Below, piece after piece: positions 10,628 through 64,000 of a stretch of DNA of 64,000 nucleotides; position 1 is the stretch's first letter; each line of letters starts with the position of its first letter. A model generated the notes under the pieces. It did not search any database. It was given only the letters and a program-made list of their open reading frames with translations, and was not told the origin of the DNA. The translations under genes and the position numbers were made by a program. This DNA is from Mesotaenium endlicherianum (Eukaryota): NCBI GenBank assembly GCA_009602735.1, contig WELA01000485.1, positions 1 through 64,000 of the forward strand, given 5' to 3'.

Positions 10628-12345
10628 ATGCGGTTGAGAAGTGGAAGACTCTACTACCCTGTGGAGCCTGTGGCAGGTTCTGATTCAAGCCAGAGTCCAC
10701 GAGGAAGTGAGACATCTGAGCGCACGGATAACCTGTGGAGTGAGCAACCGTCGGGAGACGAGTCTCGCCCTACTGCCACGAACGGTGAGAATCCGGGTAA
10801 CGAACGAGCCTTTATACCCAATTTGGGTAGAGAGCACGACGTGTGGGGTACAGATAGTGAGTCTTGGTCACCATTTGAAATGACTGGTGATGATAAGGAT
10901 GAAAATCCTAAGTTCAAGCTGTCTACAAAGTGTTTCAGTGGACGAACCGGTGTAAATAGTCTCATTTTCGAAGAGGTTGATGAGATCTGTTGGGCTGATT
11001 TCTTTGAGAAAATCCGAAAGGATTCTTCTTACACTCAGTCAGTCGCTTTTATAAGCTTGGTTCAGTACTTGGACAAGGATGCCTTGTTGCTTTATCGCCA
11101 ATTCCGGAAGGATGAGAACCTTACCCAGGATTGGGCGTTTGACGAGCAAAAGAAGGCGAGGAATTTAAAAATCCAGAAAGAGGCCGCGAAAGCCCGCCTG
11201 TCCGCCTTGTCATCAGGAAGAGCAATACGTGCTGCACCTGTTGAGAGCGTAGACTTAGCTGCACTAACACAAGAATTAACAGATGCCATGAAGCAACTCA
11301 CCGAGGGTCAGCGGCTACTCGAGATGATGATGCTGGGTCTGTCGCAGAATTGCGTCAAGTGTGTGCAGAATTGTCTGAAAAGATTTCTAATGCTCAGGAA
11401 CGAGTAGTGCGCAGGGCTGCACCTTTTACAGGGCAGCATGGTGATAGTACCACCACGGAAGCAAGCCACGCGCAAGCGTTGGCTAGTTGTCGTAGGGATA
11501 TGGAGGCTGGGGATGACCAGTTAGACTCTGAGCACTGTCTGCGTCGTTTCTTTAAGTTGCTTGAAGCAAAATTCCCAGAGGATCGCAGTCTTAAGGTGCA
11601 CCATTATGTGCATTTTTTCCGTCAGAAGAACGAGACAGTGATGGAGGTCAAATCCAGATTGGTAGACCTTGCCAAGAAGGCAGGAATCTATGAGCCTAGG
11701 ATTGTGGCTGACAAATTCTTATTGTGTCTGGGTAAAGACACAGATCGGGAGGTCAGGCCGCACCTATCTGCGAAACGCGGAATCGACTGGAACATCGACG
11801 AGGCTGCCGAAATAGCATGCAATGTCGAGGAAGGTAAAGTCTAGTACAAGGAGGCTTCCAGGACGCTTATGGCTCCTGAGAGAAAGGAGGAATCCTTTCA
11901 GCCTAAGGCCAATAGCTCTAATTTTCAGTTTAAGAAGAAGAGCGGGTCTTTCAATACGTTTGCTAAGCACGGCAACACTGCTGAGACAGCAGAAGGCTGT
12001 TGGAATTGCGGGAAATCGGGACATCAGAAGAAAGATTGTCCGTACCCGGATACTAAGCAATTGTCTGCTAGCAAGGCGCAGGTATGCGCACATTGCAGCA
12101 AAAAGGGACACTCAGAAGACAAGTTTTGGTCTAAGAACCCAAATCTGAAGCCACCATGGGCTAATGTTGTCACGAAAGAGGATGATAAGGGTAAGAAAAG
12201 GGAGAAAGATAACTCAGGTAACCAAAAGAGTAACCAGAAGTATGATGTTATGAGTGCAGAGATTGCAGAGTTGAAAGCTCAATTTGCAAGACTAAGTGTG
12301 CCTAATGTCTATTATGATGCAGATGTGGCCGAAAAGACCGTCTGA
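10628..12345 (+). pseudogene. gag: A1 gag-like region with two zinc knuckles
   Basis: Starts MRLRSGRLY; FRQKNETVMEVKSRL gag-like segment; CWNCGKSGHQKKDC and CAHCSKKGHSEDKF; one frameshift, and in-frame stops at 11842 and 12343. Confidence 0.8.
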
Positions 12346-12375: not shown

Positions 12376-13100
12376 GTGGCTACAACGGCTGCGGAGCGCG
12401 CAGATGATGACCGTCTGGGTCCAAGGAATGCTGGGAAGCTTCTTAAGACCTTTCGGATCACTCTGAATGAGAACAAGATTGCGCAGCTACGACAAGCCAA
12501 GCCTGGGCCACGCAAGGCATTTAGATTTTCGCTGGAAAAGCTGAAGGCTCTGGTGGAACACCGGATTCAGCACATTCCTTGTCTTTCACTCGCTGATCTG
12601 CGTCTTACGTATCCTTTCACGGTTGAAGAAGCCGGACGGCAGCTGGACATAGATGAGGAAGGCGCAAACAGCGCTTTGCTGCCTACTAATTTCAGCATTG
12701 TGAGAGTGCAGAACAAGGATAGAGTTTTGACGTTCAACGACTGGGCCGCTCCCAATATCCTATTGGACACAAGCGCACAGCCAGTAATCTTGGGAAAGCG
12801 AGCTGTGAAAGCTCTGGGATTGACGGCAAGGGACCTGAAAGAAAGTCCTTTCCAGTTGAGGACTGCATGTGGGCAAATTTCAAAGTCTTGCAGAATTACC
12901 CGCAAGCCTGTGAAATTCACAATAAACTTGGGGAACCTGAGGAGGCGTCACTGCTCATAGAATGCACGGTGACAGAGGCAGAGAACTATGATGTTCTTTT
13001 GGGGACAGAAGCTCTGATTCCCCTGGGTATGGTCACCGATCTGCGGAAGCAGAGAATGACCTACCAGTCAACAGATCGGCGGCCAACAGGAGAAATTCTT
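12376..13100 (+). pseudogene. A1 aspartic protease
   Basis: ILLDTSAQPVILG (DTG-like) and YDVLLGTEAL, split by a frameshift near 12930. Confidence 0.78.
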
Positions 13101-13409
13101 GTAAAAATGGTTTGCTCGGAAGAGGCAAACTACGGACTGCTAGACTGTTGTATGAATGACCGGTATCCAGGCCATTATGACCTCATCATGCAACGCGAAG
13201 AGGAGGGCTACACCAGCGTCAACATGCCGACTCCCTTGGTTTGGCAACCTCAGATTATGGAGCAACTGGAAGCTGTGAGTAACAGGGACCGTGGCCCGCA
13301 AGAGCTGTTACCAGTTCCCTATTCAATTAAGTCTGCTGCCAATCTGATGCCTGGAGTAGACCCGCTGCCGCAAGGCATTGTGAGGATGGAGGATCCTTTT
13401 CGCAGGAAA

Positions 13410-13990
13410 GGAGTAGTAGTCCTGGAATTGTTCGCCGGACTTGGTTCTGGAACCATCTCACTGATTCAGCGAGTTATCTAGGTATCCAAAGTGCTGTATG
13501 TGAACAATGATGCGGGTGCTTTCACAGCATTTAAGGAGGTCATGAGTCAGATGCGGCAAATGTACCATTTCAAGGCGTTGGTTCCTACTAAATCTAGGAT
13601 AGTGCGTCTTGCTGAAGGGAACATTCTCAATGTGAAGTCCGAGGACCTGTATGGTTACAGGATTGACTGGATCTTTGCGGGATTCCCTTGTCAACCTTTC
13701 TCGCAAGCTGGGAACAGGAGGGAATTCAATGACCCGCGAGCACGACACTAGGGATGGATGGTGAAAATCATCAGTATGCTGCGGGAACGCCAGCATCTCT
13801 ACCCACCAGTGTTTGTGATTGAGAATGTACACCCAGGGATGGATTATAACCAGATGAAGTCAGGAGATCCATGGCTCATCTTTGACTCCACCCTGGGTCA
13901 TCATGTATTGATCAACGACGCTGGGAAGATATTCGGCAACATGATTGGGCATCACTCCATGACATGGTTGGTGGAGACGATTATGACTTG
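13410..13990 (+). pseudogene. A1 C5-cytosine DNA methyltransferase domain (stops; 393-bp internal deletion)
   Basis: Motif I VLELFAGLGSG, motif IV FAGFPCQPFSQAG, motif VI VIENV, motif X KIFGNMI; motifs VIII-IX are deleted relative to A2. Confidence 0.9.
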
Positions 13991-15840
13991 GCAGCAGATG
14001 ACGTTCTCTGACATGCCTATGCCCAGGCCGAGACCAGTAACAATTGGAGTCCATGCGATGCAAACCTCTGATCATAGAGCTATCAGAGAAGCGCATCGGC
14101 GACAAGAAGAACATGGTATTGAAAGGGACGCAGCTGAGGCTGACCAAGAAGAAACACTCAGAGAAACCACAGTGGTGGAGCTGACCAGGTCAAGACCTAT
14201 TGGCGCGAATTGACAATCGGATGGCGGCTCTACACGACCCTTTGGAAAGAGAGCTGCGAAGGCTGCGAGAAGACGTAGCCATGGAAGACCAGGCAACCGA
14301 TGCAGCAAACCCTTTGGGGAGCGCTGCAGTAAGCAAATCACAGGAGGCCCCATTATCTGCAGAATGCTCCAGCCAAATTTTTGTGAGGGCGCCGGAATGG
14401 GAGGACGTTACCTCTTCTAAGTTACGGAATATGACCCCAGACCAGGTCTACGGAAGCCCATCCCCAGATGCGGTAACGTCAAGATATGAAGAACGCCAGT
14501 GCAATATTGACTAATGGGCCGAAGAATGCAGTCAGAATTCAGGAAATTCTGGAGGGTCTGAAAAGACCATTTGCCTGGAGGTGATTTTTGAAGAACGCAG
14601 GAAGGAGACGGTCGAGAGATTGCCCGCCACACCTGTTTTGATGAGCCCAGAGCCAGAGGCCAAAGGGCAACCACAAGACACAGTTACCAGCACAGCTGAG
14701 TCGATCACCAGGCAAATCATGGAGCAGTTGCTGGAAGCAGACGCCCCTCCACTCAAGGAAGAGAAAGTGGCGAAAGCAGCTCGCGCTCTACAGTCAGCCA
14801 TCATCAACATGGCGAGGCTCAACACAGGAGGGGATGAAGAACCGCCGCCTCCTGGAACCGAGAAGCCGGAGGAGGGAGAGGATGCAGAGATGCAAGACCT
14901 CCCAGAGTTTGCGTTACCATCACTCAACAATGGAGTGGAAGCCAGGGAAGAAGTTCCACGTTTTCCCACGCCAGAGTTGGATCTGCTTGACTTGCAGGAG
15001 CTGAGGACAGACGACTGGGTAGCTGACCACCTGATGGGGCCAAGCCTGGCAGACCTTTATGAAGAACTAAGGTCACCAACATCCAGTACCTCTACTGTCA
15101 GTCTTTCAGTAGCAGAGCCCAAGTCAACCGCACGACCGCCGCAACGGCAGGAGGTGACTACCTGCATTGCTAAAGGGGAGACAGCGCAAGTTAAGCCCGA
15201 GGGTCGCGCAAGCAGACCAAGGAAGGTGGCCCGTGAGGGTAACGCATCTTTTAGGAGGATGCTAAAGCGATATTTCAAGCATAAGGGGAAGGCTCAGAGA
15301 GAGGGCGTTCCGCGTGGAACCATAGCCCCACCCCCTCCGCCTCTGCGGGATATTCTGCAGAGAGAGGGAGAGGACGGCTTGATTCGCAGGGCAATGGCAT
15401 TGGGCATCAGTATGCCGCTAGGCATTAACACGCCCTTGTTGCAACTATCAGATCTTAGGATGCAGAGGCCGGAGGCACCTGCTCCCATGACACCTGCAAT
15501 CCCATAATGGAAACTGATGGATCTGAGAAACACCATCAGCCGCTTGACCGCAGCAGATGATGCTTTCCTCGCACAACTTGCGGCACCTCAAAGGCTGCAA
15601 ACGTTGGCGCAGGCATGGACGGTCACACCACCCGCAAGAGAGGAGTATGGCACGACCGTCGCCCGCAAGGCTAGTATTGAGCGAAAGTGGGGCTGGGTAA
15701 TCAGCCCTAGGACAGATCCTGCAGGTTGGCCAGTGGCAAACCAACCTCGGCCACGTGAAGAAGGAGGAACCGGGACCAGTTGGACTGCAGTCGACGAAGA
15801 AATGTTCCTGAGGCAACCCATCCGGAGGCGCTTGACGTAC

Positions 15841-16783
15841 TGTAACGATCCGAGCTATTTTAGGCGTATTTGGGACGTTTTTCCAATTATCTAAAGTACA
15901 TTATACTATTTATCATATTATTTGATAAATGATTGCATCATATTTAATTATTCGCCACACGTGTGTGCCGATTAATTCCTGGTCGATTGGCGAAACGACC
16001 GAGATACAATTGCAAAAAGCGTCGTAACGTAACTCGACTACTTCGCAAAAGTACGACATAATTATTCATAAAGTTACTTTGATTAATTATGAGATGATAA
16101 CTCATTAAATCATTGATTGATTAAGTTGATTTGATTGTCATTATTTCGACAATGCACAATCACAGATTTCGAATTTACGACCAGTCGTTAATACGAACAA
16201 ACCGTCGTATCAAGATACGAACAAACCGTCGTAAAGACAAACGAAACGAAATATGCAAAGTCGCTTTGCATCGACGCGGATTCGAACCCGCGACTTGTCG
16301 TTTGAAACGTTCACACCTAAACCAATTGGCCAAGTAGTTACTCGTAAGTCCTGGTTCATGACGTAATGATTTGAACGCGACTCCGCGAACAGTCGCGACT
16401 TTTCGAAAAGTCGCGAGAACGCGAAAACGCCCGTTTGGCGCGAACCGGTTTTCTGAAAACCATTGAAAAGTCTCCAAACCGCCAAACGGCGCGTTTCGAG
16501 CATTCGGCCGAATGGGACACGTCCCTTCGACCGTTTTCGTTGAACATGAACCAGTGCCCTAGGTGGTGACTCGAAGCACTCCAGTGCCTCATGTTGTGCA
16601 GGTATAAATACTTGTAGAGTCATCGTGAGTGCAACTCTCACAAGCACACATTCTACGTTAGTTTACATTTTCGCTCTTTCGAGTATTCGTCGATTTGCAC
16701 ATTTATACAAATATTCCTTCCACTTGAATTAAATATTCCTTGAATACCGAGGAAAGATCCTCTCGAAAAGCAGAAACGTAACA
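15841..16783 (+). mobile_element. Solo LTR of family C (943 bp), TSD CGTAC
   Basis: TGTAACG...CGTAACA; reverse complement of 55546-56488 and 61525-62507; CGTAC at 15836 and 16784; single CGTAC at the A2 empty site (~54002). Confidence 0.96.
16268..16339 (-). other. tRNA-like Pol III A-box/B-box unit within LTR C
   Basis: TGGCCAATTGG, 33 nt, then GGTTCGAATCC inside a CGCGG/CCGCG stem; acceptor stem does not pair. Confidence 0.6.
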
Positions 16784-17050
16784 CGTACACCTCATCGCAA
16801 GAGAGGCGACGCGTCATTGGGAAAGGTAATAAGCCTAGGAAACAGGCTGCAGAGCCTATGGCAACGGAGGAGCAAGCTGCAAAGCCTGCTACCCCACCTC
16901 TTAAGAATCAGGCAGAAAAGCCTGAGAGCCAGAATCAGGCAGAAAAGCCCGAGGGCCAGGATGAGGGCGGAAAGCCCCCACCTGCACCCAAGAAGTAGCA
17001 ACTACTGGATGCCTTTGTTGGGGAGAAGCAACTTGAAACTGAGACTTTTG

Positions 17051-18159
17051 CCATTGGGAAAATGGTCTCAGCCCAGCAGAGAGCACAAGTAGAAAGGTTG
17101 CTAAAGAAACACCGCAAGGTGTTTGCTTTTACAAAGGAGGAGATTGGTAGAACCACTGCCAGTGTGTGTGAGATCACACTAACTACTGATAACCCAGATT
17201 GACTTGGGCCGCATAAGCTCAGTCAGACAGAGTGGGACTGTGCGGAAAAAACTTGCTGAAGAGCTGCATAAGCTCCGCATGATTGAAAAATTCACCTCAG
17301 TGCATGGGGCTCCCACAATAGTAGTCGCTAAAAAGGACGAGGCCGGCAATTACATTGCCACTCGTATGTGTGGAAATTAGAGGCGACTGAATCTCTACAC
17401 TGAGCCAGACAGCTATGTGATGCCTACGCCGGAGCGGATCTTTGCGATTGCCATCACCGGGAAGGTGTTCAGCATCATCAATCTGCGCCAAGGCTTCAAC
17501 CAGATCCCTGTGAAAACAGAAGATCAAGGTAAGATCGCTTTCTTGGCTCAAAGGGAACTTTGGCAATGGACAGTAATGCTATTTGGGCTGAAAAATGCCC
17601 CAGCCATATTTCAGAGGACTATGGATAAAGTGCTGGAGGGGCTGGATTTTGCTAAGCCATACATTGACGATGTGGTAGTATTCAGCGAGTCCATAGAGGA
17701 GCACCCCGAGCACTTGGAACAAGTGTTCCAGCGCCTGGAGAAATTCCAGATGAAGCTGCATCCTGGGAAGTGCAAATTCTTTAAGGCACATGTGCCTTAC
17801 CTAGGACATGAGATTGGGAACAATGCTATGTCCCCTCAGGCTGTGAAGACTGAGGCCATTTACAAGATACCTGCACCTGCGAATGTGTCTAAGTTGAAAG
17901 CTCTGTTAGGGCTAAGCGGATACTATCGTAAGTTTGTGAAGGATTATAGCAGAATTGCTAAACCCCTGACGGAACTCCTGAAAAAAGATGTGCCTTTTGC
18001 GTGGACAGAAGCTCAGGATAAAGCCATGAACGAGCTTAAGGAGCGGCTGGTAACAGCCCCAGTCTTGCAAACGCCTGACTACTTCAAGCCGTTCAATCTG
18101 CACACTCACTGGAGTCATGTGGGAATTGGCGCAGTGCTCACTCAGGCCGCAAGCCCTAG
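17051..18159 (+). pseudogene. pol: A1 reverse transcriptase and start of RNase H
   Basis: RMCGN*RRLN, MLFGLKNAPAIFQR, PYIDDVVVFS, GYYRKFVKDYS; cut by element D at 18160. Confidence 0.92.
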
Positions 18160-33299: not shown

Positions 33300-35201
33300 C
33301 CTAGAGAGAAGTATGTCATTGCCTATGCCTCAGGCTCTAACAATCGAGCGGAGAGCAACTACTCGTCCTACGAAGGAGAGCTGCTGGCAGTGTTTTGGGT
33401 TGTCACACACTTCAGAGAGTATCTGTGGGGAAGACCCTTCACGCTGATCACGGATCACTCACCATTACTATGGCTGATGAAGAATGGAGACCTCACTGGT
33501 AAGTTGGCTCGCTGGGCTCTTAAGCTGCAAGAGTACCAAATGACGGTGGTGCACAGAGCAGGAGTGCTCAACAACGACACCGATGGACTCAGCAGGAACC
33601 CAGACCCATCTTCAGACGACAGAATAGGAGCCCGAGAGGACAAAGACCCGAGCAGCCCAGCAGAGTTGGTGGCCTGCCTAGCCGAAATGGCTGGAATGGT
33701 AGAATCAGGTGAAGCTGAACCTCTACCCCTGTTCAGTTCAGAGATCTGGAAAGGTCAAGCTACTATGCACTGGCTGAAGACGGGAACTCACTTGGAAGGG
33801 CTATCAATAAAGGAGAAGGACCAGGTAAGCCATCGAGCTAAAAAGTTTTGCTGGAAACGCAACAACCTCTTTAAAATCTAAGAAATTGGCCAGGAGATGT
33901 TAGTGCCAGAACCCATCAGAAGAGCTCTTGTGCAGGAAATAAGCGAGGACACTGGACACTATGGTGTCAAGAAGACGTATAGTCTTTTGAAGCTGTCTTA
34001 CTGGTGGAGGGACATGAAGCAGCAGTGTGAAGATGTGATCAAGGCCTGCCAAAGCTGTGATCGCGTCAAGGCTGGTTTTACACAGCAACATCCACACTTG
34101 CAACCTTTGCCGATCATGGGCCTAGGCTACCGCTGGAGCTGCGATCTCGCAGGTGAGCTACCGCTGTTGAAGCGAGGTAACAAGTATATCATGGTCATGA
34201 TTGAGCATTTCTCTAAGTGGATAGAGGTCGTGCCTCTGACTGCTAAGGAGCGTCTAGGGACCGCGGAAGCGCTCCTCAATGGTGTGATTGTGCGTCATGG
34301 AGCTCCAGCAGAAGTGCTGACAGACCAAGGGTCTGAGTTCCAAGGGTCTTTTTAGAAACTCTTGGATAAATGCTTCATCGATCATCGCACTACGTCTAGA
34401 GATCATCCGCAAGCGGATGGTCTGGCAGAAAGGATGGTGCTAACCATAAAGTCTGCTTTGCGCAAGTTTTGCCTTGAGCATGACAAGCGTGACTGGGATC
34501 TGGCCCTGCCATGGCTGGTTATGGGTTACAGATTTAGCAAACAGACTGCCTTGGCGAGTTACTCGCCATATCAGATACTGTTGGGCGGAAGTCCAGTAGT
34601 GCCCAGCAGCATCAAGCAGGAGATTGAACAGGTGAAAGACCTGGACAGCCCTGATGAACTGCTAAAGGTGATGGTACGCCGTAAGGCGTTATCTGAGCGC
34701 ATGATGCCGGCTGCACTGGACAATCTGAAAATTGTACAGAAAAGAGATGCGCAGCGTTACGCCAGGATGCGAGACGGAAGTTACCGTCTGCAGATGACGC
34801 AAATTCAAGAAGGAGACTTTGTCTACCGCAAGCGCCAGACCAAGACCACCATCGACACCAGTTCAGGTGCAGTGATCTTACGCGTGAAACATGCGCTTGA
34901 CAATGGTGTGTTAGAATTGGAAGGTTCTGATGGTAAAACCATGAGAGACCACGTGCAGAATTGCTCTCTATGCCATTTGCCAAATATTGATCTTACGGTT
35001 AGGGTTGTGCCCGAGGAATTGGTGCCAGCCACACCTTGTGCCAGCTGCAAAGTGGTGGATGATCAGGAAGCAATGGTAACTTGCGGTAAGTGTGGTGCCC
35101 GTTGGCACACTTTCTGCATTGGCGTGGAAGAGATTATGGCAAGACAATGGGAATGCCCTGACTGCCTTCCTAAAACTCCTAGCCGTAAGGCTGGAAAATA
35201 A
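33300..35201 (+). pseudogene. pol: A1 RNase H, integrase and C-terminal PHD finger
   Basis: NYSSYEGELLAV, TDHSPLLWL; GHYG...CQSCDR; WSCDLAG, VLTDQGSEF, QADGLAERMV; C4HC3 pattern CASC-x11-CGKC-x4-H-x2-C-x12-CPDC. Confidence 0.92.
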
Positions 35202-35235: not shown

Positions 35236-35247
35236 GAAAGGGAGGGG
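35236..35247 (+). promoter_or_regulatory. Polypurine tract of A1
   Basis: GAAAGGGAGGGG 35 nt after the integrase stop, immediately before TGTAAG. Confidence 0.85.
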
Positions 35248-35853
35248 TGTAAGAGGAATTCAGGCAAGACAGGTATTTTTAAAATCTTTTGCTAAAGTCC
35301 TAAGATAAGCAGACGGTGAGAGCTGAGTGAAGGAGAACGTTGCCCTGAGTACTGGTCATGGTTGCATGGTGCAAGTTCAGGAGCCCAGGGCTGGGTCAAC
35401 CTTGGTAAGGCTTGTCACCGACACACGTGCAAAGATCGATCGACCATGTTTGCCCGCTCGTGAGGAGGGCCACCGACACATCAACCAGGTCAACGGCACA
35501 CGTGCTGAAAGGCCACGCACGTGCCAAGGGACCGACACTGTTAGGCACGACAATATGTCTGAAATCGAGATTTGAGATATATTAAAAAATTCACATACTA
35601 AAATGCATGCCCGCGCATTCTTCCTCAGCATTCTTCAATGTAGCAAGTCTCCATAACCACAATCTAACTATATAAGCTAGCAAGATGAGCGTAGAAGTCA
35701 TTGCAGTGCAGAATTGTAGAGCTGCTAAGTTAGATCTCCTAATCCCGTCTCGTAAGCGAGCTCTATGTCGAGCAAGCTGCGGGAGCAAGCACTTCGTCAC
35801 CTAGCTATCACGTCAAGCCTACCCACCAGTAAGCCAACCACGTCCCGTCTCCC

Positions 35854-42890: not shown

Positions 42891-43205
42891 TCATAAACAC
42901 ACTGCAGTTAGTGAAGTCATGATATTTTGCCGCTACTGAGTGCCCTTGATGAAGAGGGACGCGATCAAGAGAGTTCCTAGAGTGGAATACCTGGTGTGAG
43001 TGAGTATAAGGAAAAATTGAGTTGGAGAGCAAGTGAGTGTGAGCGCAGGTTGAGTGTGTAATATGGTGATCAGAGACTACCACTCCCTCCAACTTAGATT
43101 TAAAGGTGGGCTGCCTGTCACAACTGTCACTAACTGTCACATCCCCCTCCAACTTACATGGAGATAGGACCTCCTGTCACCTTCCCATGTCTACGGAAGG
43201 GACAG

Positions 43206-46200: not shown

Positions 46201-47130
46201 GATCTACTTCCCTCTTAGGGGGTAGTTCTGGAGGCATATTAAATACATCCGTATACTGAGCAACAATTTTTGCAGCAGTAGGGTGCTCTGAAGGGTTTAC
46301 CTTTTTCTCAACCACTTCTTCAGGTTGAGGAGGTACCTCTCTTAGCAGCAGACAGAACATTCTGTCTTCCTTCTGGTTCCAGCTTTTGACAAACTCCATT
46401 GCATTCAGCAACTTGCATCCTTCTGGAAGCCTCTTCTTTTCCTTCATTTCCCATCCACACAGGACAAGAGGAAGAGCACTGGTGGGTGCCAAGTCAGTCT
46501 GCCCATCACTGGCTCCTCTCACTTTAACTATACCTCTGCTCCAACACACTTCAGCTTGATGTCTATTAAGCCAGGACCTGCCTAGCACGAGATCATAAAA
46601 GCCAGTGTTGAGTACCTCAAATGTAAGCGTTTCAGTTAGAACTGCAATGCCAGAACCTAACTGGACCTCAATAGGCTTGGTTATAACTCCTCCCGGGATA
46701 CTTGAGGCATCTCCAAGGAATATTTTTCTATTCCCTTGGGTGACAGTAGGCAGCCTTAGCCGCTTAACTAAGTCCTTGTGGATAAAAGTATGTGACGCCC
46801 CTCCGTCAACAAATGCCCTCACCTTCCTACCTGCAATCATGCAATGCAGTAGGATAGGGGGGACTGTCTTTTTCTGACTTTCGCATTGTTCTCCTGACGT
46901 AGCAAAGAAATATTGGACATCAGGTGGAACAAGAGCATCCAGAGTGTGCACTCTCTGGTCGTCTATATTGCTGATGGTCTCCTTTATCTGGTTCTCAGGC
47001 ATGCATAGTGAATCCAGTTCAGCAGGACCCATTATACCTGCTACGAGGGCAGCTAGTGACGACTCACTATCTCTAGCATCCTCACAATCAGTAGACTGGA
47101 TTACTGACTCTTGCTATCTTTTAAAGGCTG
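43206..47130 (-). pseudogene. pol: E2 pol (PR-RT-RH-INT-chromodomain), fragmented, with a 126-bp tandem duplication
   Basis: ORFs 45878-47032, 45089-45628, 44438-45055, 44153-44404 and 43206-44075 match E1 pol. Confidence 0.93.
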
Positions 47131-48532
47131 GTCTTTTCTCTCGATCCCTGGCAGGTGCTTGACTGGACACTGTTCTCTGTAGTGACCTTTCTGCTGACAA
47201 TGGTAGCGAGTGAATTTTGCTGAGGCTGGTCTCGGCTTAGTCCTACCACCACCCCTTCCATAGCCACCTCGAGAGAAACCACCTCTACCTCTAGACTGAA
47301 TAGCATTGTACTCATACTCATATTCATCACCCTGATTATCCTCAGCCTGGTCTCCTTCAACTGCATTGTAGGAACCGTGGGGCTTTTTGACAATCTTAGA
47401 CACCAAAGCGTTACTCTGGCGCTTGTGATTGAACTGCTGCTGATCCCAGGCGTCAGCATCCTGGATCAAGTCATCGAGTTTCTCATACTTTTTCTCAGCA
47501 AAATGACCAGAGACCTCGGGTTTCAAGCCATACCTGAAGTATGCTATCCTATACCGATCTGGCAAATCTGGCTGCTTCATCATGTTCTCTTGGAACTTTT
47601 GAGCAAACTCAGCAACTGAAGTGGTCTGCTTCAGTGTCAGGGAGATCATCGCATAGATAGCTTTCTCCTGCTGGTTCATGACATCGAACTTCTCATGCAA
47701 CTTCTCGACAAACTCTACCCACGTAGGGTCACCGAGTTGCCGAGCCTTACGCTCTTCCTTCCAGTAAAGCCACCAGTCTGCGGCACTGCCTTTCAATAGC
47801 GCACCGGTGTGCTTGACCTTCTTGTAATCTTGCAGTTATGGGTAGTTCTCCAGCCACTGCTCAACATCCGCGAGAAACTTGATCAGGTAATATTTTCTGT
47901 TTCCCTCAGGATCATAGTCCTGGGGAGGTTTCGGCTTGGGCTTACTAGGCCCTCGGCCACCACCACTAGTGGTTTGAGACCCCAGTTGGTCTCTGTCCCG
48001 CAGTAGGGACATTATGATTCTTTTGTCCTCCTGCTGGGACTGATACATGGTCGCCATTTGCGACTGCATCTGAACGAACAACGCTCCCAAGTCTACACTC
48101 TGGGGTGGTAGATTAGCAAATGCAGCAGCAGCATTGGCATCTACTTGCTGAGTAATGTCCTCAACAATCCCTCTCGCTCCTGGAGGAGCAATTCCTGCCG
48201 CATTCAGCCGGTCACGTATTTGACCTAGGGGTACATTGAGTTGTACAGCAGGAGGTGGGTTCAGAACATTGGCCCTTGATGCCATAAGTTCTTCAACAGT
48301 GCGCTCATCAGCTGGCTGTCCTTCTCTCCTTTCTGTATCTTCAGCGGCCTTTGCTACTTGTTCAGCTTCTATTCTCGCTCTCTCCTTCTCAGCTTGCTGT
48401 GCTGCGACTGCGGTAATAGCAGTTGCCTCATCTGCAGCCTCTCTAGCTGCAGTATCTGCTACTGCTTCGAAATAGGTACGGGTTCCCGCTACATGGCTTT
48501 CCGCCTGGTTTTTGACATTCTCGTTATTCTGG
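47101..48532 (-). pseudogene. gag: E2 gag, 5'-truncated
   Basis: ORFs 47836-48285 and 47101-47796 match E1 gag; RGG-rich stretch and (C>R)YHCQQKGHYREQC knuckle. Confidence 0.9.
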
Positions 48533-51015
48533 CTCCTCCAAGGTCTTCAAATAGATCAAGATGTTGTCCAAAAATGCCACCACAAACTGGTCCAAATAGG
48601 ATCTTAAGATATTATTCATGAGCCCCATGAATGTAGCAGGTGCATTAGTCAATCCAAAAGGCATGACCGTGAACTCGAACAAACCATAGCGAGTACTGAA
48701 AGCAGTCTTCTGAACGTCTTGGTCGGATGAATCCCTTCTCCAATAACTCTGTCAGCTGCTTCTTCAACTCATCCAACTCCGCAAACGATTATCGATAGGC
48801 GGGTCTCACTGGTGGCTTGCTCCCTGGTTCCAACTCAATCTTGTGCTCCATAGCTCTCTGTGGAGGTAATCCTGCAGGTAGATCCTCAGGAAATACGCAC
48901 TGAACTCCTCCAACAGCGCCTTAATTTTGGCAGGAATCTCAGCAGGCTTCTTCTCTTGAGCAGTTGGGCTCTGCTCCTTCTCAGCAAGGGGATCAGACAC
49001 TACTACTTCCTCCTCTGGCGATGTACATTTGCCCAGGCTGTTAGGATTCACGCTTGCTCTATCTGATGACCCGGCCAGGGCCACCGAAACAAGGTACATC
49101 TCCTTCACCTGATTCGCCCTGCATAGCTTCTTAACTTGCAGGCTCGACAGAAGACAGTTACTTGTGGTCATATCTACCTCCACCTGTTTCGCTGTCTCCA
49201 TTCGACCACCACGCCCTTGGACTTNCCACGCCCTTGGACCTTCACTTGTCCTGTGCTCCAGTGCACTTGAGGGTTGGCTTTCCTCAGCCATGGTCTGCCC
49301 AATATCACCTCATGGTGACCCAACTCTGCCTGCTCCATAACTTCCTTACTGCGGTGCCCCGCTACTTCCACGTGAATAGTTTCCGTAGGTGCACCACACT
49401 TGAGTCTCTGCCCATTCGCCAAAATTGCCTCCTTGGGCTCATAATTCTTCTGCACAGGGATTCGCCACTCTTTCACCAGCTTCTTGTGCACAAAGTTTGC
49501 ACTTGCGCCACTGTTGACCATACACTTCGCCTTGTTGCCGTCCACCACTCCTTCCACGATGATAGGCTTGTCAACATCTCGTCTTTCGCTTCTCGGCAGG
49601 CTCCTGGGGGTAACCTCCTTGTAAGCTCTCGTCTTCACGCTAGTAGATGCCCCAGAACGACTTACTGGCGTCCTCCTTTTTCCTGCTGTTGAGGTTGCTT
49701 CGCCTGCACATGACAGTCTCGAGCCAGATGTCCAAGCTTGCCGCAATTAAAACCGCAATCACTACCCTAATAGTAGGGTCCTCTTGGCTTGAAATTCTGC
49801 TGCCTGCGCTGGTACTGCACAAGTCCCAACTCCATAGGTACTGGACCTTGAACACTCGTGCTTGGCGCTTGAGGTCCAAAGCGTTGATATCCTCCAAAGT
49901 TGTGGCTTAGGCGCACGCACTCCCGATGCGGGTGAAATAATCGGTTGCACCACTGGATTAATATGAATTGGTGGCACAACAGGTGCAGGTGGCGAACTCG
50001 TCAAAGCGGCGTTCCCCATAACAACTCCCACTAATTTCTCTACCTCCTGGCGCATACTTTGTTGAAATTGGGCGTAGACTTCTCCTCCCATTGCATTCGC
50101 CATTTGCCTTAGCATCGCCTGCATCTCTTGTTGCTCTCTGGTCATCGTTGGTGCTGCCTGCTGCCCCGCGTGCTCAACATGCTCAACATGCTCGCCTCCT
50201 CCAGCTGCCGACTACGACTCCATAATATAATATGCAAACTAGCCCAGCTCCGATACCAGATGAAAGGGGCAAAGTGCCCTAGTGGAAGCGTAGTATCTCA
50301 CGAGGAAAGAAACTAGTTGCAATCATACTAAAGAGCGCAGCGGCATATCACTAAGAAAGCTTAAAAAAATTTCTCAATATTTTGAGTGGCAAGAAATTGC
50401 TCACAAATGATGTAGGATGGAAGGCCTTGTCATTACAAACCCGTAAAAATTTACAGAAGTGAAAACTGATAAGAAACGAAGTAGTTATGCCTATTTATAG
50501 TTTTCTACGACGGTCGCTTGCCCCTAGGCGGGAGGGCCGCTTAGCAACGGATTTCCTTAAAGTGTTTGTCAAATTGTCCCTTCCAAAACATTCGTGAGAA
50601 AGCCAGATCAGTCTCATCTGACGTGTCGGGTCGATTTGACGTCCACATGCATGCATCGAAATACCTAGAATATACCAACTTAGACGCGCTAGGCTAATCC
50701 GAAACTTCTAGGTAAATCGACCTAGTCCGCACTCCGCGTCAGCCGAACTTACGTGAAGGTTCAATTCATTCTAACGGCTCAGATCGCTCGACGCTGTTGG
50801 TCAATCCGTCGGTCGCGCTCACCGCGAATAAAGGATAGTCGTCAACCGACCTCAAAACTAATTAAACTTCGAAAATCCATAACTCTCTCAATACTTGACC
50901 AAATTCGATGAACTTTATATCAAAATGATCAAAAACATGCATTCTACACTACTTGCCAATCAAAACATACTTTCATGAAACTCAAAAATGCACTTTATAT
51001 ACTTATGACCTTACA
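48533..51015 (-). mobile_element. Element F, 5' part (5' LTR 50261-51015, PBS 50247-50258, deleted gag, protease, partial RT)
   Basis: LTR homologous to 37868-38608; GPVPMELG and [37 protein letters not shown] and AFLDNILIY. Confidence 0.9.
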
Positions 51016-52359
51016 GTTTGGCAACCTCGGATCATGGAGGGAGTGGAAGCTGTGAGTAACAGGGACCGTGGCCCGCAAGAGCTGCTGCCAGTCCCTTATC
51101 CAGTTAAGTCTGCTGCCAATTTGATGCCTAGAGTAGACCCACTGCCGCAAGGCATTGTGAGGTTGGAAGATCCCTTTCGCAGGAAAGGAGTAGTAGGGCT
51201 AGAATTGTTTGCCGGACTTGGTTTTGGAACCATCTTACTGATTCAGCGAGGTATCCAGGTTTCCAAAGTACTGTATGTGGACAATGATAAATGTGCTTTC
51301 ACAGCATTTAAGGAGGTCATGAGTCAGATGCGGCAAATGTACCATTTCAAGGCGTTGGTGCCTACTAGTTTGGTGCGTCTTGCTGGAGGAAAAATTCTCA
51401 ACGTGAAGTCTGAGGACCTGTATGGTTACAGGATTGACTGGATCTTTCGGGGATTCTCTTGTCAACCTTTCTTGCAAGCTGGGAACAGGAGGAGATTCAA
51501 TGACCCGCGAGCACAACACTGGGGATGGATGGTGAAAATCATCAATCTGCTGCGGGAACGCCAGCATATCTACCCACCAGTGTTTGTGATTGAGAATGTA
51601 CATCCAGGGATGGATTACAACCAGATGAAGCCAGGAGATCCATGGCTGGTCTTCGACTCCACCCTGGGTCATCATGTATTGATCAACAACGCCAGACACG
51701 GAGGACTCTCACACCGGGCTAGACTATTCTGGACTAACGGCATGTCCATTGAAATCCTGAGGGAGATGGAGGAGATTACGCGGCGCTCACCAACAGCAGT
51801 ATCTGTAGGAAAATCACTGATGGTGGAAACCAAGCCAATGATCAGGAGAGATTCCTTCCCACAGTACGTCATCAACGAGCCAGGCCGGCCAAGGGTGGTG
51901 CTGCCCACCTTCACGGCATACCCAAGATCACGCGCATTCGTGAATGGAGGACCAGGAATGGTCAAGAATGCGCACGACAGAGAAGCTCAGTGGAGAGAGC
52001 CGACAGCTGAAGAGAACGGAAGGTGCCTCGGGTTACCCAACTCCATTGCACAAGAAATTGTTGCGATGGTGGGACAAGACGACGCTGGGAAGATATTCGG
52101 CAATATGATTGGGCATCACTCCATGACGTGGTTGGTGGAGACAATCATGACGTGGCAGCAGATGACATTCTCTGAGAAGCCTATGCCCAGGCCGAGACCA
52201 GTAACGATTGGAGTCCAGGTGGTGCCAACCTCTGATCAGAGAGCTATCAGAGAAGCGCATCAGCGACAAGAAGAATATGGTGTTGAAAGGGACGCAGCTG
52301 AGGCTGACCAAGGTGAAGCACTCAGAAAAACCAGAGTGGCAGAGCTGACCAGGTGTTAA
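51016..52359 (+). CDS. A2 C5-cytosine DNA methyltransferase domain, open frame with all catalytic motifs
   Basis: I LELFAGLG; IV GFSCQPF (PCQ in A1); VI VIENV; VIII SHRARLFWTN; IX WREPTAEENGRCLGLP; X KIFGNMI, in canonical order. The first 21 aa of the track ORF (50953) are F LTR sequence. Confidence 0.92.
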   Translation, partial: VWQPRIMEGVEAVSNRDRGPQELLPVPYPVKSAANLMPRVDPLPQGIVRLEDPFRRKGVVGLELFAGLGFGTILLIQRGIQVSKVLYVDNDKCAFTAFKEVMSQMRQMYHFKALVPTSLVRLAGGKILNVKSEDLYGYRIDWIFRGFSCQPFLQAGNRRRFNDPRAQHWGWMVKIINLLRERQHIYPPVFVIENVHPGMDYNQMKPGDPWLVFDSTLGHHVLINNARHGGLSHRARLFWTNGMSIEILREMEEITRRSPTAVSVGKSLMVETKPMIRRDSFPQYVINEPGRPRVVLPTFTAYPRSRAFVNGGPGMVKNAHDREAQWREPTAEENGRCLGLPNSIAQEIVAMVGQDDAGKIFGNMIGHHSMTWLVETIMTWQQMTFSEKPMPRPRPVTIGVQVVPTSDQRAIREAHQRQEEYGVERDAAEADQGEALRKTRVAELTRC

Positions 52360-54269
52360 GACCTACTGGCACGAATTGACAATCGGATGACGGCTCTACA
52401 CGACCCTCTGGAAAGAGAGTTGCGAAGGCTGCGGGATGACGTAGCCATGGAAGACCAGGCAACTGGTGAAGCAAACCCTTTGGCGAGCGCTGCAGCAAGC
52501 AAATCATAGGAGGTCCCATTATCTGCAGAATGCTCCAGCCAAATATTTGTGAGGATGCCGGAATGGGAGGAAGAGACCACTTATGAGTTACGGAACATGG
52601 CCCAAGACCAGGTCTACGGAAGCCCATTCCCAGGCGCGGCAACGTCAAGATATGGAGAACGCCAGTGCAATATTAGCAAATGGGCCGAAGAATGCAGTCA
52701 GAATTCAGGAAATTTTGGAGGGTCTGGAAAGACCATTTTCTTGGAGGTGATTTTTGAAGAACGCAAGAAGGAGACGGTCGAGAGATTGCCCGCCACACCT
52801 GTTTTGATGAGCCCAGAGCCAGAGACCAAAGGGCAACCACAAGGCACAGTTACCAGCACAGCTGAGTCGATCACCAGGCAAATCATGGAGCAGTTGCTGG
52901 AAGCAGACGCCCCTCGACTCAAGGAAGAGAAAGTGGCGAAAGCAGCTCGCGCTCTACAGTCAGCCATCATCAACATGGCGAGGCTCAACACAGGAGGGGA
53001 TGAAGAACCGCCGCCTCCTGGAACGGAGAAGCCGGAGGAGGGAGAGACTGCAGAGATGCAAGGCCTCCCAGAGTTTGCGTTACCGTCACTCAACAATGGA
53101 GTGGAAGCAAGGGAAGAAGTTCCACTTTTTCCCACGCCAGAGTTGGATCTGCTTGACTTGCAGGAGCTGAGGACAGACGACTGGGTAGCTGACCACCAGA
53201 TGGGGCCAAGCCCAGCAGACCTTTATGAAGAACTAAGGTTACCAACATCTAGTACCCCTATTGCTAGTCTTTCAGTGGCAGAGCCCAAGTCAACCGCACG
53301 ACCGCCGCAACGGCAGGAGGTGACTACCTGCACTGCTAAAGTTGAGACAGCGCAAGATAAGCCCGAGGGTCGCGCAAGCAGACCAAGGAAGGCGGCCCGT
53401 GAGGGTAACGCATCTTTTAAGAGGATGCTAAAGCGATATTTCAAGCATAAGGGGAAGGCTCACAGAGAGGGCGTTTCGCGAGGAACCACAGCCCCACCCC
53501 CTCCGCCTCTGCGGGATATTCTGCAGAGAGAGGGAGAGGACGGCTTGATTCGAAGGGCAATGGCATTGGGCATCAGTGTGCCGCTAGGCATTAACACGCC
53601 CTTGTTGCAACTATCAGATCTTAGGATGCAAAGGCCGGAGGCACCTGCTCCCATGACACCTGCAATCCCATAATGGGAACTGATGGATCTGAGAAACACC
53701 ATCAGTCGCTTGACCGCAGCAGATGATGCTTTCCTCGAACAACTAGCGGCACCTCAAAGGCTGCAAACGTTGGTGCAGGCATGGACGGTCACACCACCCG
53801 CAAGAGAGGAGTATGGCACGACCGTCGCCCGCATGGCTAGTATTGAGCGAAAGTGGGGCTGGGTAATCAGCCCTAGGACAGATCCTGCAGGTTGGCCAGT
53901 GGCAAACCAACCTCGGCCACGTGAAGAAGGAGGAACCGGGACCAATTGGACTGCAGTCGACGAAGAAATGTTCCTGAGGCAACCCATTCGGAGGCGCCTG
54001 ACGTACACCTCATCGCAAGAGAGGCGACGCGTCATTGGGAAATGTAATAAGCCTAGGAAACAGGCTGCAGAGCCTATGGCAACGGAGGAGCAAGCTGCAA
54101 AGCCTGCTACCCCACCTCCTAAGAATCAGGCAGAAAAGCCTGAGAGCCAGAATTAGGCAAAAAAGCCCGAGGGCCAGGATGAGGGCGGAAAGCCCCCACC
54201 TGCACCCAAGAAGTAGCAACTACTGGATGCCTTTGTTGGGGAGAAGCAACTTGAAACTGAGACTTTTGC

Positions 54270-55545
54270 CATTGGGAAAATGGTCTCAGCCCAGTAGAGA
54301 GCACAAGTAGAAAGGTTGCTAAAGAAACACCGCAAGGTGTTTGCTTTTACAAAGGAGGAGATTGGTAGAACCACTGCCAGTGTGTGTGAGGTCACACTAA
54401 CTACTGATAACCCAGATTGACTTGGGCCGCATAAGCTCAGTCAGACAGAGTGGGACTGTGCGGAGAAAACTTGCTGAAGAGCTGCATAAGCTCCGCATGA
54501 TTGAAAAATTCACCTCAGTGCATGGGGCTCCCACAATAGTAGTCGCTAAAAAGGACGAGGCCGGCAATTACATTGCCACTCGTATGTGTGGAAATTAGAG
54601 GCGACTGAATCTCTACACTGAGCCAGACAGCTATGTGATGCCTACGCCGGAGCCGATCTTTGCGATTGCCACCACTGGGAAGGTGTTCAGCATCATCAAT
54701 TTGCGCCAAGGCTTCAACCAGATCCCAGTGAAAACAGAAGATCAAGGTAAGATCGCTTTCTGGGCTTAAAGGGAACTTTGGCAATGGACAGTAATGCTGT
54801 TTGGGCTGAAAAATGCCCCAGCCATATTTCAGAGGACTATGGATAAAGTGCTGGAGGGGCTGGATTTTGCTAAGCCATACATTGACGATGTGGTAGTATT
54901 CAGCGAGTCCATAGAGGAGCACCCCGAGCACTTGGAACAAGTGTTCCAGCGCCTGGAGAAATTCCAGATGAAGCTGCATCCTGGGAAGTGCAAATTCTTT
55001 GAGGCACATGTGCCTTACCTAGGACATGAGATTGGGAACAATGCTATATCCCCTCAGGCTGTGAAGACTGAGGCCATTTACAAGATACCTGCACCTGCAA
55101 ATTTGTCTAACTTGAAAGCTCTGTTAGGGCTAAGCGGATACTATCGTAAGTTTGTGAAGGATTATAGCAGAATTGCTAAACTCCTGACGGAACTCCTGAA
55201 AAAGGATGTGCCTTTTGCGTGGACAGAAGCTCAGGATAAAGCCATGAACGAGCTTAAGAAGCGGCTGGTAACAGCCCCAGTCTTGCGAACGCCTGACTAC
55301 TCCAAGCCGTTTAATCTGCACACTCACTGGAGTCATGTGGGAATTGGCGCAGTGCTCACTCAGTCCGCAAGCCCTAGAGAGAAGTATGTCATTGCCTATG
55401 CCTCAGGCTCCAACAATCGAGCGGAGAGCAACTACTCGTCCTACGAGGAGAGCTGCTGGCAGTGGTTTGGGTTGTCACACACTTCAGAGAGTATCTGTGG
55501 GGAAGACCCTTCACGCTGATCACGGATCACTCACCATTACTATGG
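54270..55545 (+). pseudogene. pol: A2 RT and RNase H start
   Basis: MLFGLKNAPAIFQR, PYIDDVVVFS, YVIAYAS, ESNYSSYE; stops shared with A1. Confidence 0.92.
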
Positions 55546-56488
55546 TGTTACGTTTCTGCTTTTCGAGAGGAACTTTCCTCGGTATTCAAGGAATATTTGA
55601 TTCAAGTGGAAGGAAAATCTGTATAATTGTGCAAATCGACGAATACTCGAAAGAGCGAAGATGTAAACTAACGTAGAACGTGTGCTTGTGAGAGTTGCAC
55701 TCACAATGACTCTACAGGTATTTAAACCTGTACAACATGAGGCACTGGAGTGCTTCGAGTCACCACCTTGGGCATTGGTTCATGTTCAACGAAAACGGTC
55801 GAAGGGACGTGTCCCATTCGGCCGAATGCTCAAAACGCGCCGTTTGGCGGTTTGGAGACTTTTCAATGGTTTTCCGAAAACCGGTTCGCGCCAGACGGGC
55901 GTTTTCGCGTTCTCGCGACTTTTCGAAAAGTCGCGACTGTTCGCGGAGTCGCGTTCAAATGATTACGTCATGAACCAGGAGTTACGAGTAACTACTTGGC
56001 CAATTGGTATAGGTGTGAACGTTTCAAACGACAAGTCGCGGGTTCGAATCCGCGTCGATGTACAGCGACTTTGCATATTTCGTTTCGTTTGTCTTTACGA
56101 CGGTTTGTTCGTATCTTGATACGACGGTTTGTTCGTATTAACGACTGGTCGTAAATTCGAAATCTGTGATTGTGCATTGTCGAAATAATGACAATCAAAT
56201 CAACTTAATCAATCAATGATTTAATGAGTTATCATCTCATAATTAATCAAAGTAGCTTTATGAATAATTATGTCGTACTTTTGCGAAGTAGTCGAGTTAC
56301 GTTACGACGCTTTTTGCAATAGTATCTCGGTCGTTTCGCCAATCGACCAGGAATTAATCGGCACACATGTGTGGCGAATAATTAAATATGATGCAATCAT
56401 TTATCAAATAGTATGATAAATAGTGTAACGTACTTTAGGTAATTTGGAAAACGTCCCAAATACGCCTAAAATAGCTCGGATCGTTACA
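55546..56488 (-). repeat. C 3' LTR
   Basis: TG...CA, adjacent PPT and TSD. Confidence 0.95.
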
Positions 56489-56640
56489 CTCCTCCCCCCT
56501 TAAAAGAACTTAACGTCCTCGTTAAGCGTACGTCTTTTAAGTCTTAATGTGTCAATACTAGTCTATACTAGTCTTGACTAGCGGAAAACACTGGTTTGAG
56601 CGATTGGACGGTGCATCATCACAGGGACGTAAAAGAGCAA

Positions 56641-60710: not shown

Positions 60711-60731
60711 TAGCTAAACAATAGCTATTTA

Positions 60732-61376: not shown

Positions 61377-61524
61377 CGCGAACCGAAAATGAATCGAGGG
61401 CAAATCTACACAGAATCAAGAAAGCGGTTAGATTCGACGACAGAAACCGGCAGAAAATCCAACAGATTTTCTAGCCACTAAAACAAAAATTCCTTGGAGA
61501 AACCGAGATCGGCTCCGATACCAA

Positions 61525-62507: not shown

Positions 62508-64000
62508 TATGGCTGATGAAGAATGGAGACCTCACTGGTAAGTTGGCTCGTTGGACTCTTAAGCTGCAAGAGTACCAAATGACGGTGGTGCACAGAGCAG
62601 GGGTGCTCAACAACGACGCCGATGGACTCAGCAGGAACCCAGACCCATCTTCAGACGACAGAATAGGAGCCCGAGAGGACAAAGACCCGAGCATCCCAGC
62701 AGACTTGGTGGCCTGCCTAGCCGAAATGGCTGGAATGGTAGCATCAGGTGAAGCTGAACCTCTACCCCTGTTCAGTTCAGAGATCTGGAAAGATCAAGCT
62801 ACTATGCACTGGCTGAAGACGGGAATCCACTTGGAAGGGCTATCAGTGAAGGAGAAGGACCAGGTAAGCCATCGAGCTAAAAAGTTTTGCTGGAAACGCA
62901 ACAACCTCTTTAAAATCTAAGAAATTGGCCAGGAGATGTTAGTGCCAAAACCCATCAGAAGAGCTCTTGTGCAGGATATGCACGAGGACACTGGACACTA
63001 TGGTGTCAAGAAGACGTATAGTCTTTTGGAGCTGTCTTACAGGTGGAGGGGCATGAAGCAGCAGTGTGAAGATGTGATCAAGGCCTGCCAAAGCTGTGAT
63101 CGCGTCAAGGCTGGTTTTACACAGCAACATCCACACTTGCAACCTTTGCCGATCATGGGCCTAGGCTACCGCTGGAGCTGCGATCTCGCAGGTGAGCTAC
63201 CGCTGTCGAAGCGAGGTAACAAGTATATCATGGTCATGATTGAGCATTTCTCTAAGTGGATAGAGGTCGTGCCTCTGACTGCTAAGGAGCGTCTAGGGAC
63301 CGCGGAAGCGCTCCTCAATGGTGTGATTGTGCGTCGTGGAGCTCCAGCAAAAGTGCTGACAGACCAAGGGTCTGAGTTCCAAGGATCTTTTTAGAAACTC
63401 TTGGATAGATGCTTCATCGATCATCGCACTACGTCTAGAGATCATCCGCAAGCGGATGGTCTGGTAGAAAGGATGGTGCTAACCATAGAGTTTGCTTTGC
63501 GCAAGTTTTGCCTTGAGCATGACAAGCGTGACTGGGATCTGGCCCTGCCATGGCTGGTTATGGGTTACAGATTTAGCAAGCAGGCTGCCTTGGCGAATTA
63601 CTTGCCATATCAGATACTGTTTGGCAGAAGTCCAGTAGTGCCCAGCAGCATCAAGCAGGAGATTGAACAGGTGAAAGACCTGGACAACCCTGATGAACTG
63701 CTAAAGGTGATGGTACGCCGTAAGGCGTTATTTGAGCGCATGATGCCGGCTGCGCTGGACAATCTGAAAATTGCACAGAAAAGAGATACGCAGCGCTACG
63801 CCAGGACGCGAGACGGGAGCTATCGCCTGCAGTTGACGCAGATTCAAGAAGGAGACTTCGTCTACCGCAAGCGCCAGACCAAGACCACCATCGACACCAG
63901 TTCAGGTGCAGTGATCTTACGCGTGAAACATGCGTTTGACAAAGGTGTGTTAGAACTTGAAGGTTCTGAAGGTAAAACCATGAAAGACCACGTGCAAAAT
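62508..64000 (+). pseudogene. pol: A2 RNase H end and integrase (continues beyond the window)
   Basis: Near-identical to A1 33470-34960; MHEDTGHYG...CQSC, WSCDLAG, VLTDQGSEF. Confidence 0.92.

Follow-up and report, generated by a model that had tools for sequence, protein, structure and literature searches.

The closest described system is KnitGypsy-Dnmt3, a Gypsy element of Klebsormidium nitens that carries a Dnmt3 domain in its Pol ORF (de Mendoza et al. 2018, PMC5890265). As far as the accessible text of that paper goes, the domain was placed in the DNMT3/DRM clade, showed a Ka/Ks below 0.2, and was called an acquisition in that lineage; a DIRS-like arrangement of terminal repeats was also reported for the element. 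The domain gave no methylation in yeast, a result that the authors called inconclusive. De novo CG methylation in yeast was obtained with two other retrotransposon DNMT3s in the same text, and it is described there for SymbioDIRS-Dnmt3 of Symbiodinium, a DNMT3-type domain located in Pol. Streptophyte Gypsy-DNMT3 elements are cited as known in PMC12344493 and in the available part of bioRxiv 10.64898/2026.05.21.726589, and the portion of PMC6338049 at hand states that land plants such as tracheophytes lack DNMT-bearing elements of this sort. PHD-bearing elements are also covered by 10.1101/2021.11.30.470311. The accessible portions of PMC10952607 and PMC9033089 add nothing further on a Gypsy-DNMT3 element.

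The window considered here, by which the whole 64-kb stretch of DNA that was analyzed is meant, is a nest of LTR elements. It contains two copies (A1 and A2) of a Gypsy family, called family A, with a DNA methyltransferase (MTase) domain. Like KnitGypsy-Dnmt3 as described in the accessible text, family A joins the Gypsy domain set to a DNMT3-like domain that is intronless and unrearranged and evolves under purifying selection, and a K. nitens integrase bears the same C-terminal PHD finger. However, the two MTases are only 27% identical. The spacer between MTase and RT is ~750 aa in family A and 110-145 aa in the relatives that show both domains. Copy number is apparently higher in family A (a depth ratio of ~400, which is rough, versus 33 DNMT genes in a table of PMC5890265, as available), and dN/dS is 0.34, from one pair of dead copies, versus the value below 0.2 reported for KnitGypsy-Dnmt3. 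The combination of Gypsy and DNMT3 is itself not new, having been published in 2018; family A is, to judge from its sequence, a new and very divergent member of the KnitGypsy-Dnmt3 kind (accessible text of PMC5890265).

Other described elements share parts of this design. SymbioDIRS-Dnmt3 and SymbioLINE-Dnmt are likewise retrotransposon-borne C5 MTases, but in the text consulted (PMC5890265) the Symbiodinium elements are of the DIRS and LINE types with a tyrosine recombinase or an endonuclease, whereas family A is a Gypsy element with a DDE integrase. EpiLTRs/DAM-LTRs are LTR elements too, in which a methyltransferase is coupled to a chromatin reader; in contrast to family A, their DNMT is sister to DNMT4 and is accompanied by a chromodomain and an adenine MTase, and the available part of the preprint states that they are distinct from streptophyte Gypsy-DNMT3 (bioRxiv 10.64898/2026.05.21.726589). 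Gypsy-7a_cRei of Chlamydomonas has a Gypsy Gag-Pol and a PHD finger as family A does but, unlike family A, no DNA methyltransferase among the domains listed in the text at hand (PMC9940879). In a literature search in which subscription papers fell mostly outside the reach, no report was found of the element outside K. nitens, of a wider range, or of two domain orders. The points that have not appeared in the literature searched are how broad the lineage is, that it has two domain orders, that the MTase is paired with a PHD finger, and that family A has a long spacer and is apparently abundant; the dead copies of the window add mainly a divergent and apparently high-copy family.

Organization of the two family A copies

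Family A consists of decayed Ty3/Gypsy elements with the order gag-protease-MTase-spacer (~750 aa)-RT-RNase H-integrase-PHD (Table 1), and the gag-protease-RT-RNase H-integrase order was found in A1. The protease region of A1, whose Pfam match falls below the curated cut-off, also matches the protease regions of relatives. No chromodomain was found at the C-terminus of the family A integrase, where a PHD finger takes its place. The family A RT lies on a long branch away from the outgroup, for which two further Gypsy RTs from the window were used.

Table 1. Features of the family A copies A1 and A2 and of the insertions that interrupt them
Feature	Position	Strand	Evidence and remarks
A1 gag, broken	10628..12345	+	begins with MRLRSG; zf-CCHC, with two zinc knuckles (11998, 12085)
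A1 aspartic protease	12690..13100	+	LLDTSA 12760, DVLLG 12990; one frameshift; gag-asp_proteas E=7.6e-5, below the curated cut-off
A1 methyltransferase, GFPCQ kept	13407..13994	+	two stops; 393-nt deletion removing motifs VIII-IX
A1 spacer and RT/RNase H	13995..18159	+	interrupted by solo LTR 15841-16784 (TSD CGTAC)
Nested insertion splitting A1	18160-33299		TSD CCTAG
A1 RNase H end, integrase, C-terminal PHD finger (35037-35165)	33300..35201	+	RT_RNaseH, Integrase_H2C2, rve and PHD in Pfam
Polypurine tract then TG, likely start of A1 3' terminal repeat	35236..35249	+	sequence
LTR of unrelated chromovirus-type element truncating A2	50261..51015	-	86% match to 37868-38608; PBS 50258; flanks CAAAG/GTTTG unmatched
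A2 remnant of protease-MTase linker	51016..51183	+	homologous to A1 13239-13406; cut by foreign LTR
A2 DNMT3-like C5-cytosine methyltransferase (predicted), motifs I, IV, VI, VIII, IX, X	51184..52158	+	PF00145 E=1.4e-10; AF2 pLDDT 90.4, pTM 0.90; Foldseek; VIA
A2 spacer, ~750 codons, MTase to RT	52159..54417	+	rich in E/A/P/R; several stops; MTase frame; no known domain
A2 RT (YIDD 54878) and RNase H start	54418..55545	+	RVT_1, RT_RNaseH; frameshift near 54475
A2 RNase H end and integrase	62508..64000	+	follows nested chromovirus-type insertion 55546-62507 (TSD TATGG)

In A2, positions 51016-52359 form a single stop-free frame that contains six C5-MTase motifs in canonical order, beginning at 51199 (I, LELFAG), 51451 (IV), 51589 (VI, IENV), 51712 (VIII, HRARLFWTN), 52009 (IX, EENGRCLG) and 52099 (X, GNMI); the fold itself extends over ~51184-52158. 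A1 matches A2 at ~90% from 13239 onward. Its motif I lies at 13422 and its GFPCQ at 13680, and an open frame (12723-13481) joins the C-terminal half of the protease to motif I. The link between protease and MTase is seen only in A1, as A2 is without its 5' half. These positions bear out two statements of the earlier note, namely that A2 holds all six motifs in one open frame and that A1 keeps the catalytic PCQ and places the domain downstream of the protease.

No gag or protease of A2 is present in the window because 51016 is the junction with the LTR of another element. The LTR flanks at this junction form no target-site duplication (TSD), and one contig loose end at 51016 runs on into A1-like upstream sequence. 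The truncating element (element C, 37868-51015) is a chimera of two insertions, formed by recombination or misassembly, because its LTRs are only ~86% alike and its flanks do not match. The formation of this chimera removed the gag and protease of A2.

Both copies are dead. The MTase of A1 is interrupted by stops at 13479 and 13749, and its 393-nt deletion is in frame; A2 alone has the stop at 52357, and six stops and one frameshift in the 3' half are common to A1 and A2. Apart from these stops, the reading frame of the MTase is kept until a few codons before RT. The spacer that it crosses gave no Pfam match with its two longest open pieces and, when compared with 309 proteins, matched none except in its last ~60 residues. 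A non-standard genetic code, to which the many stops facing Gln could point, was ruled out by TGA stops, stops at Tyr positions and long standard-code frames elsewhere.

The ends of family A are disturbed by insertions and an N gap. BLAST of both ends found no 5' repeat matching the putative start of the 3' terminal repeat and no matching repeat pair of the DIRS-like kind, and there was no clear primer-binding site (PBS). A block that is 94% identical between its two occurrences lies at 2924-4333, before the N gap, and at 9210-10518, directly upstream of the A1 gag; a 63-bp piece of the block recurs at 35560-35622. This block may be a leader of family A or a split terminal repeat. Downstream of A1, another decayed gag-like region contains an inverted 185-bp fragment of the family A integrase (36091-36275, minus strand).

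Identity of the methyltransferase domain

The MTase domain matches PF00145 in both copies, with 41.6 bits in A2 and 41.1 bits in the A1 piece 13482-13748 against a curated cut-off of 22 bits. The catalytic Cys of motif IV, Glu of motif VI and Arg-x-Arg of motif VIII are all kept in A2. Its motif IV reads GFSCQ; in other words, the Cys is retained and the preceding Pro is gone. This loss is private to the copy because A1 has the Pro and position 51457 differs in all covering depth of the three DNA runs. The motif IV Cys, the motif VI Glu and the first Arg of motif VIII are present in every one of 126 aligned relatives. The residue before the Cys is E in 78 of them, P in 38 and S in 5, so that Glu-Cys replaces the canonical Pro-Cys of motif IV in 78/126.

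Which kind of C5 MTase is it? A search with a profile built from the domain and 65 relatives placed DNMT3A first (7e-25), with DNMT3C/3B from 2e-22 and DNMT3B at 3e-22. Weaker ranks of the same 66-sequence profile went to DRM/DRM2 (6e-14 to 3e-11), M.HhaI (4e-10) and DNMT2 (3e-5). The profile aligns motif VIII (HRxRxxWxN) with HRARYFWGN of DNMT3A, the DNMT3 motif to which the earlier note had likened it. An AF2 model of the A2 domain, built with the alignment of the relatives, has the full fold (pLDDT 90.4, pTM 0.90); a single-sequence fold (pLDDT 32.8) was left out of use. DNMT3B/3C/3A occupy the first nine rows of a Foldseek search with the model. VIA-align gave Z scores of 26.5 for DNMT3B (rmsd 2.7, 268 aligned), 25.1 for DNMT3A, 24.2 for M.MpeI, 21.6 for M.HhaI and 18.7 for DNMT1, so that the structural margin of DNMT3B over M.MpeI is small. 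By profile and predicted fold, the family A MTase is of the DNMT3 type, nearer to DNMT3 than to DRM, DNMT1/CMT, DNMT2, DNMT5 and bacterial enzymes.

The domain has the fold and the catalytic motifs in common with host DNMT3A/B/C and plant DRM2, and its motif order is unrearranged as in DNMT3. It differs from these host enzymes in that structural identity is only 16-17% and in being embedded in a retroelement. No PWWP/ADD or UBA domains were found in the family A MTase.

Selection, divergence and abundance

Over 190 codons of the MTase core, A1 and A2 differ with a dN of 0.058, a dS of 0.168 and a dN/dS of 0.34 (bootstrap CI 0.18-0.68), a figure that comes from one pair of dead copies. The N-terminal part of the MTase alone gives 0.49 with a CI reaching up to 1.00, and the intervals of other family A regions include 1 or rest on few changes. 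Divergence between the two copies is uneven, being 9.4% in the MTase, 5.7% in the spacer, 2.0% in RT and 3.8% in the integrase. This pattern suggests recombination or copying from an already broken template.

CpG observed/expected is 0.49-0.73 in family A versus 0.41-0.85 in the MTase-free families of the window, which is no stronger loss in family A. Transitions in repeat pairs outside family A number 101/896 at CG, 115/1315 at CHG and 202/3680 at CHH. These counts fit a streptophyte that methylates CG and CHG, and no more than that; a streptophyte is the probable host.

The MTase domain was found in all three DNA runs, at high depth in one (X1) and at low depth in two from other organisms (B and C). 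It thus occurs across the family. Summed contig depth in X1 averages 28,000 over the MTase bins and 43,000 over RT, with single contigs at ~70; overlapping short contigs inflate the sum, which is not a copy number. It is read here only as a rough indication of about one hundred to a few hundred family A copies, most of them with the MTase. The sequence is present in 20 of the 24 runs listed, from five organisms, none of which has half of its words. No RNA run is among the indexed runs listed as carrying the sequence, and in the RNA run X22, of which ~6 in 100 was read, zero reads fell on the MTase.

The MTase domain is not a one-off capture. The central claim of the earlier note, that a Gypsy retrotransposon encodes a C5 MTase in the stretch from protease to RT, is supported, with the MTase being DNMT3-like. 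The three observations that it held would speak against the claim were lack of a PF00145 match, family A copies without the domain, and a dN/dS near 1, and none of them was made.

Relatives and the two domain orders

A HMMER scan with the MTase yielded 355 representatives at E<=0.001, the best 150 of which are 25-39% identical to it. Word-based homologue searches returned 0/4,294 and 0/716 candidates, and a related-locus search of viral contigs and metagenomes (the latter also with P0124) found no MTase relatives. Domain order was mapped with the window's own domains. Among the best 150 of the 355, the MTase comes downstream of RT/RNase H or immediately precedes the integrase in 79, follows the window order in 14 and has an order that is not assignable in 57. 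The 14 with the window order, that is, after gag/protease or before RT, are K. nitens GAQ93235, six Closterium and seven metagenome records, and among the matches listed RT is seen downstream in 4. GAQ93235 has a protease then an MTase and aligns over the whole domain (27% identity, E=6e-24). P0138 and P0275-P0277 are unbroken single ORFs of the gag-PR-MT-RT-RH-INT type with 110-145 aa between MTase and RT. Of 8 proteins with the post-RNase H order that were looked up, a single one carries an organism name, Scenedesmus. P0164, whose order is not assignable, is an MTase relative from Mesostigma.

Of 24 long relatives scanned, 19 have a PHD finger after the integrase. Relatives of the RNase H-integrase-PHD part of the window come from K. 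nitens, Closterium, Calypogeia, Riccia and Volvox and are at most 53% identical. Two further arrangements were seen: P0129 has a Tudor domain after the PHD, and P0154 has a G-patch between MTase and integrase.

The MTase trees contain retroelement domains only and are unrooted. They left out rows with less than 270 aa of MTase, and the tree with SH-aLRT values took 17 of 75 post-RNase H rows and dropped near-duplicate pre-RT rows. In these trees a single branch separates the two MTase orders (FastTree 0.97; SH-aLRT 96), and the 40 post-RNase H RTs group weakly (0.66). MTase and RT distances are correlated (Spearman 0.71 over 45 rows, reached in 0/500 permutations; 0.54 within the 40 post-RNase H rows). 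The window MTase is the longest branch and lies on the K. nitens/Closterium/Mesostigma side of the SH-aLRT 96 branch. AU tests rejected neither placement of this long branch, with p of 0.61 for grouping with the post-RNase H rows and 0.68 for grouping with K. nitens, and both constrained trees outscored the quick tree. The two domain orders suggest one old green-plant lineage that moved its MTase. Such a breadth of relatives would push the capture to well before Klebsormidium.

Proposed role of the enzyme and competing accounts

Why would a transposon keep the kind of enzyme by which hosts silence it? The question has stood since 2018, and the sole Gypsy-borne domain tested was inactive in yeast (PMC5890265, as far as accessible). 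The reading favored here, which we hold to be somewhat better than even as a whole, is that A1 and A2 are decayed non-chromovirus Ty3/Gypsy elements in which protease and RT flank a DNMT3-type MTase and the integrase is followed by a PHD finger. The domain would go back to an old Gypsy lineage of green plants, with KnitGypsy-Dnmt3 among its members, rather than being a fresh capture, and active copies would make the enzyme together with Gag-Pol, package it and direct it at their own cDNA. General Gypsy biology and the accessible text of PMC5890265 point to translation of the MTase with Gag-Pol. The protease would then release it from the polyprotein, and it would enter the particle in which cDNA forms. 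There it would likely methylate the cDNA before or at integration, with a preference for CG by analogy to DNMT3A and SymbioDIRS-Dnmt3. The benefit could be that a new copy arrives already marked like host chromatin. Several results count against this reading: the K. nitens domain was inactive in yeast, CpG loss in family A is no stronger than in MTase-free families, the part of X22 that was read gave zero reads on the MTase, dN/dS comes from a single pair of copies, and the AU tests leave more than one placement for the long branch of the window MTase.

The earlier note had proposed translation with Pol. This part appears likely given the frame that runs to a few codons before RT and the single ORFs P0138 and P0275-P0277. 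Against a single ORF in family A stand the spacer stops common to both copies and, in the 3' half as a whole, their six common stops and one frameshift. As for the PHD finger, its likely task would be to tether integration by way of histone H3. Best PDB matches of the A1 PHD include the fingers of KMT2C/D, ORTHRUS 2, KDM5B/A, WSTF and BAZ2B. The first PHDs of KDM5A/B and the PHDs of BAZ2 bind unmodified H3.

A bolder version is offered tentatively, as its several parts together are considerably less probable. It holds that Gypsy-DNMT3 is an ancient green-plant lineage (Mesostigma, Klebsormidium, Closterium, a chlorophyte and likely bryophytes) that kept an active DNMT3 and an H3-reading PHD. 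The enzyme would have moved once between two slots in Pol, and in this host the family, with its unusual spacer of 750 residues, would have reached copy numbers in the hundreds, enough for a mobile source of de novo methylation. Many natural relatives have the full catalytic set, some within unbroken polyproteins, and would be better substrates for testing self-methylation.

The same PHD finger can be read differently. It is conceivable, though unlikely, that the MTase acts at or after integration and not on free cDNA. With a PHD that reads unmethylated H3K4, it would methylate the insertion site and its flanks, the ADD-MTase logic of animal DNMT3 would be rebuilt, and the new copy would be silenced or host chromatin shaped. 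The position of the PHD after the integrase in A1 and in most of the long relatives scanned fits this account, as do its likeness to the fingers named above and the targeting role suggested for a Chlamydomonas Gypsy PHD in the available text of PMC9940879. However, cleavage by the protease would separate the MTase from the integrase-PHD part, and more than 1,400 residues lie between them here.

The spacer stops raise a different issue. If they were original, the element would have two ORFs. The first, gag-protease-MTase-tail, would stop within the spacer, and the second would encode RT-RNase H-integrase-PHD; the enzyme would then lie outside Pol and be produced in amounts like those of Gag. 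A stop 504 codons past the MTase is indeed common to both copies (53671/15505), P0124 ends 516 residues past its MTase without an RT, and many relatives are recorded as ~1,040-aa ORFs that start just before RT. Yet the frame is unchanged across the spacer stop, the stretches 53038-53848 and 53896-54446 are covered gap-free by contigs from organisms B and C, and P0138 and P0275-P0277 are single ORFs. Furthermore, the shared stops look like inherited damage because such stops are also found at conserved RT and integrase positions. A two-ORF layout is quite improbable, and the favored reading keeps the MTase within Gag-Pol.

The origin of the domain has been taken above as DNMT3. Descent from a phage or bacterial enzyme has some points in its favor: in the ESM Atlas, two clusters of largely viral members share the top score of 0.96 with a streptophyte cluster; there are matches to PHROG MTase families (4e-10); and M.MpeI is third by structure. 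But the best phage tblastn match reaches only 23.5% identity (E=4e-5), HRxRxxWxN aligns to the DNMT3A motif, and DNMT3 comes first by profile and in both fold searches, which makes such an origin very improbable. A one-off capture of a host gene that is carried neutrally, to which the death of both copies and the lack of transcripts in one RNA run might point, is already largely refuted and scarcely credible given the dN/dS of 0.34, the absence of introns, the presence in 3 organisms and the location of the MTase in retroelement polyproteins in 93 of the best 150 of 355 relatives.

Other elements and features of the window

The chromovirus family B has an extra ORF of ~500 codons after the chromodomain in both of its copies, at 28466-30019 (plus strand) and 41230-43176 (minus strand). 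The ORF is hydrophilic and 94% alike between the copies; it had no Pfam match, and the piece tested had no PHROG match. The insertion that splits A1 (18160-33299) has 1.3-kb LTRs (K2P 0.029), its TSD of CCTAG and a PBS at 19475, and the only long ORF inside it is the nested B1 copy. Its LTR begins like the family B LTR. The element is likely non-autonomous.

All five primer-binding sites of the window (8706, 19475, 22813, 50258 and 61523) read TGGTATCGGAGC, one base off the form for the initiator tRNA-Met of flowering plants. This variant is a possible host marker, and a literature search on it found nothing of relevance. Lastly, a Cys-rich ORF of 240 codons at 448-1167 (minus strand), which had no Pfam or PHROG match, has a hydrophobic N-terminal stretch and is possibly a host secreted protein.
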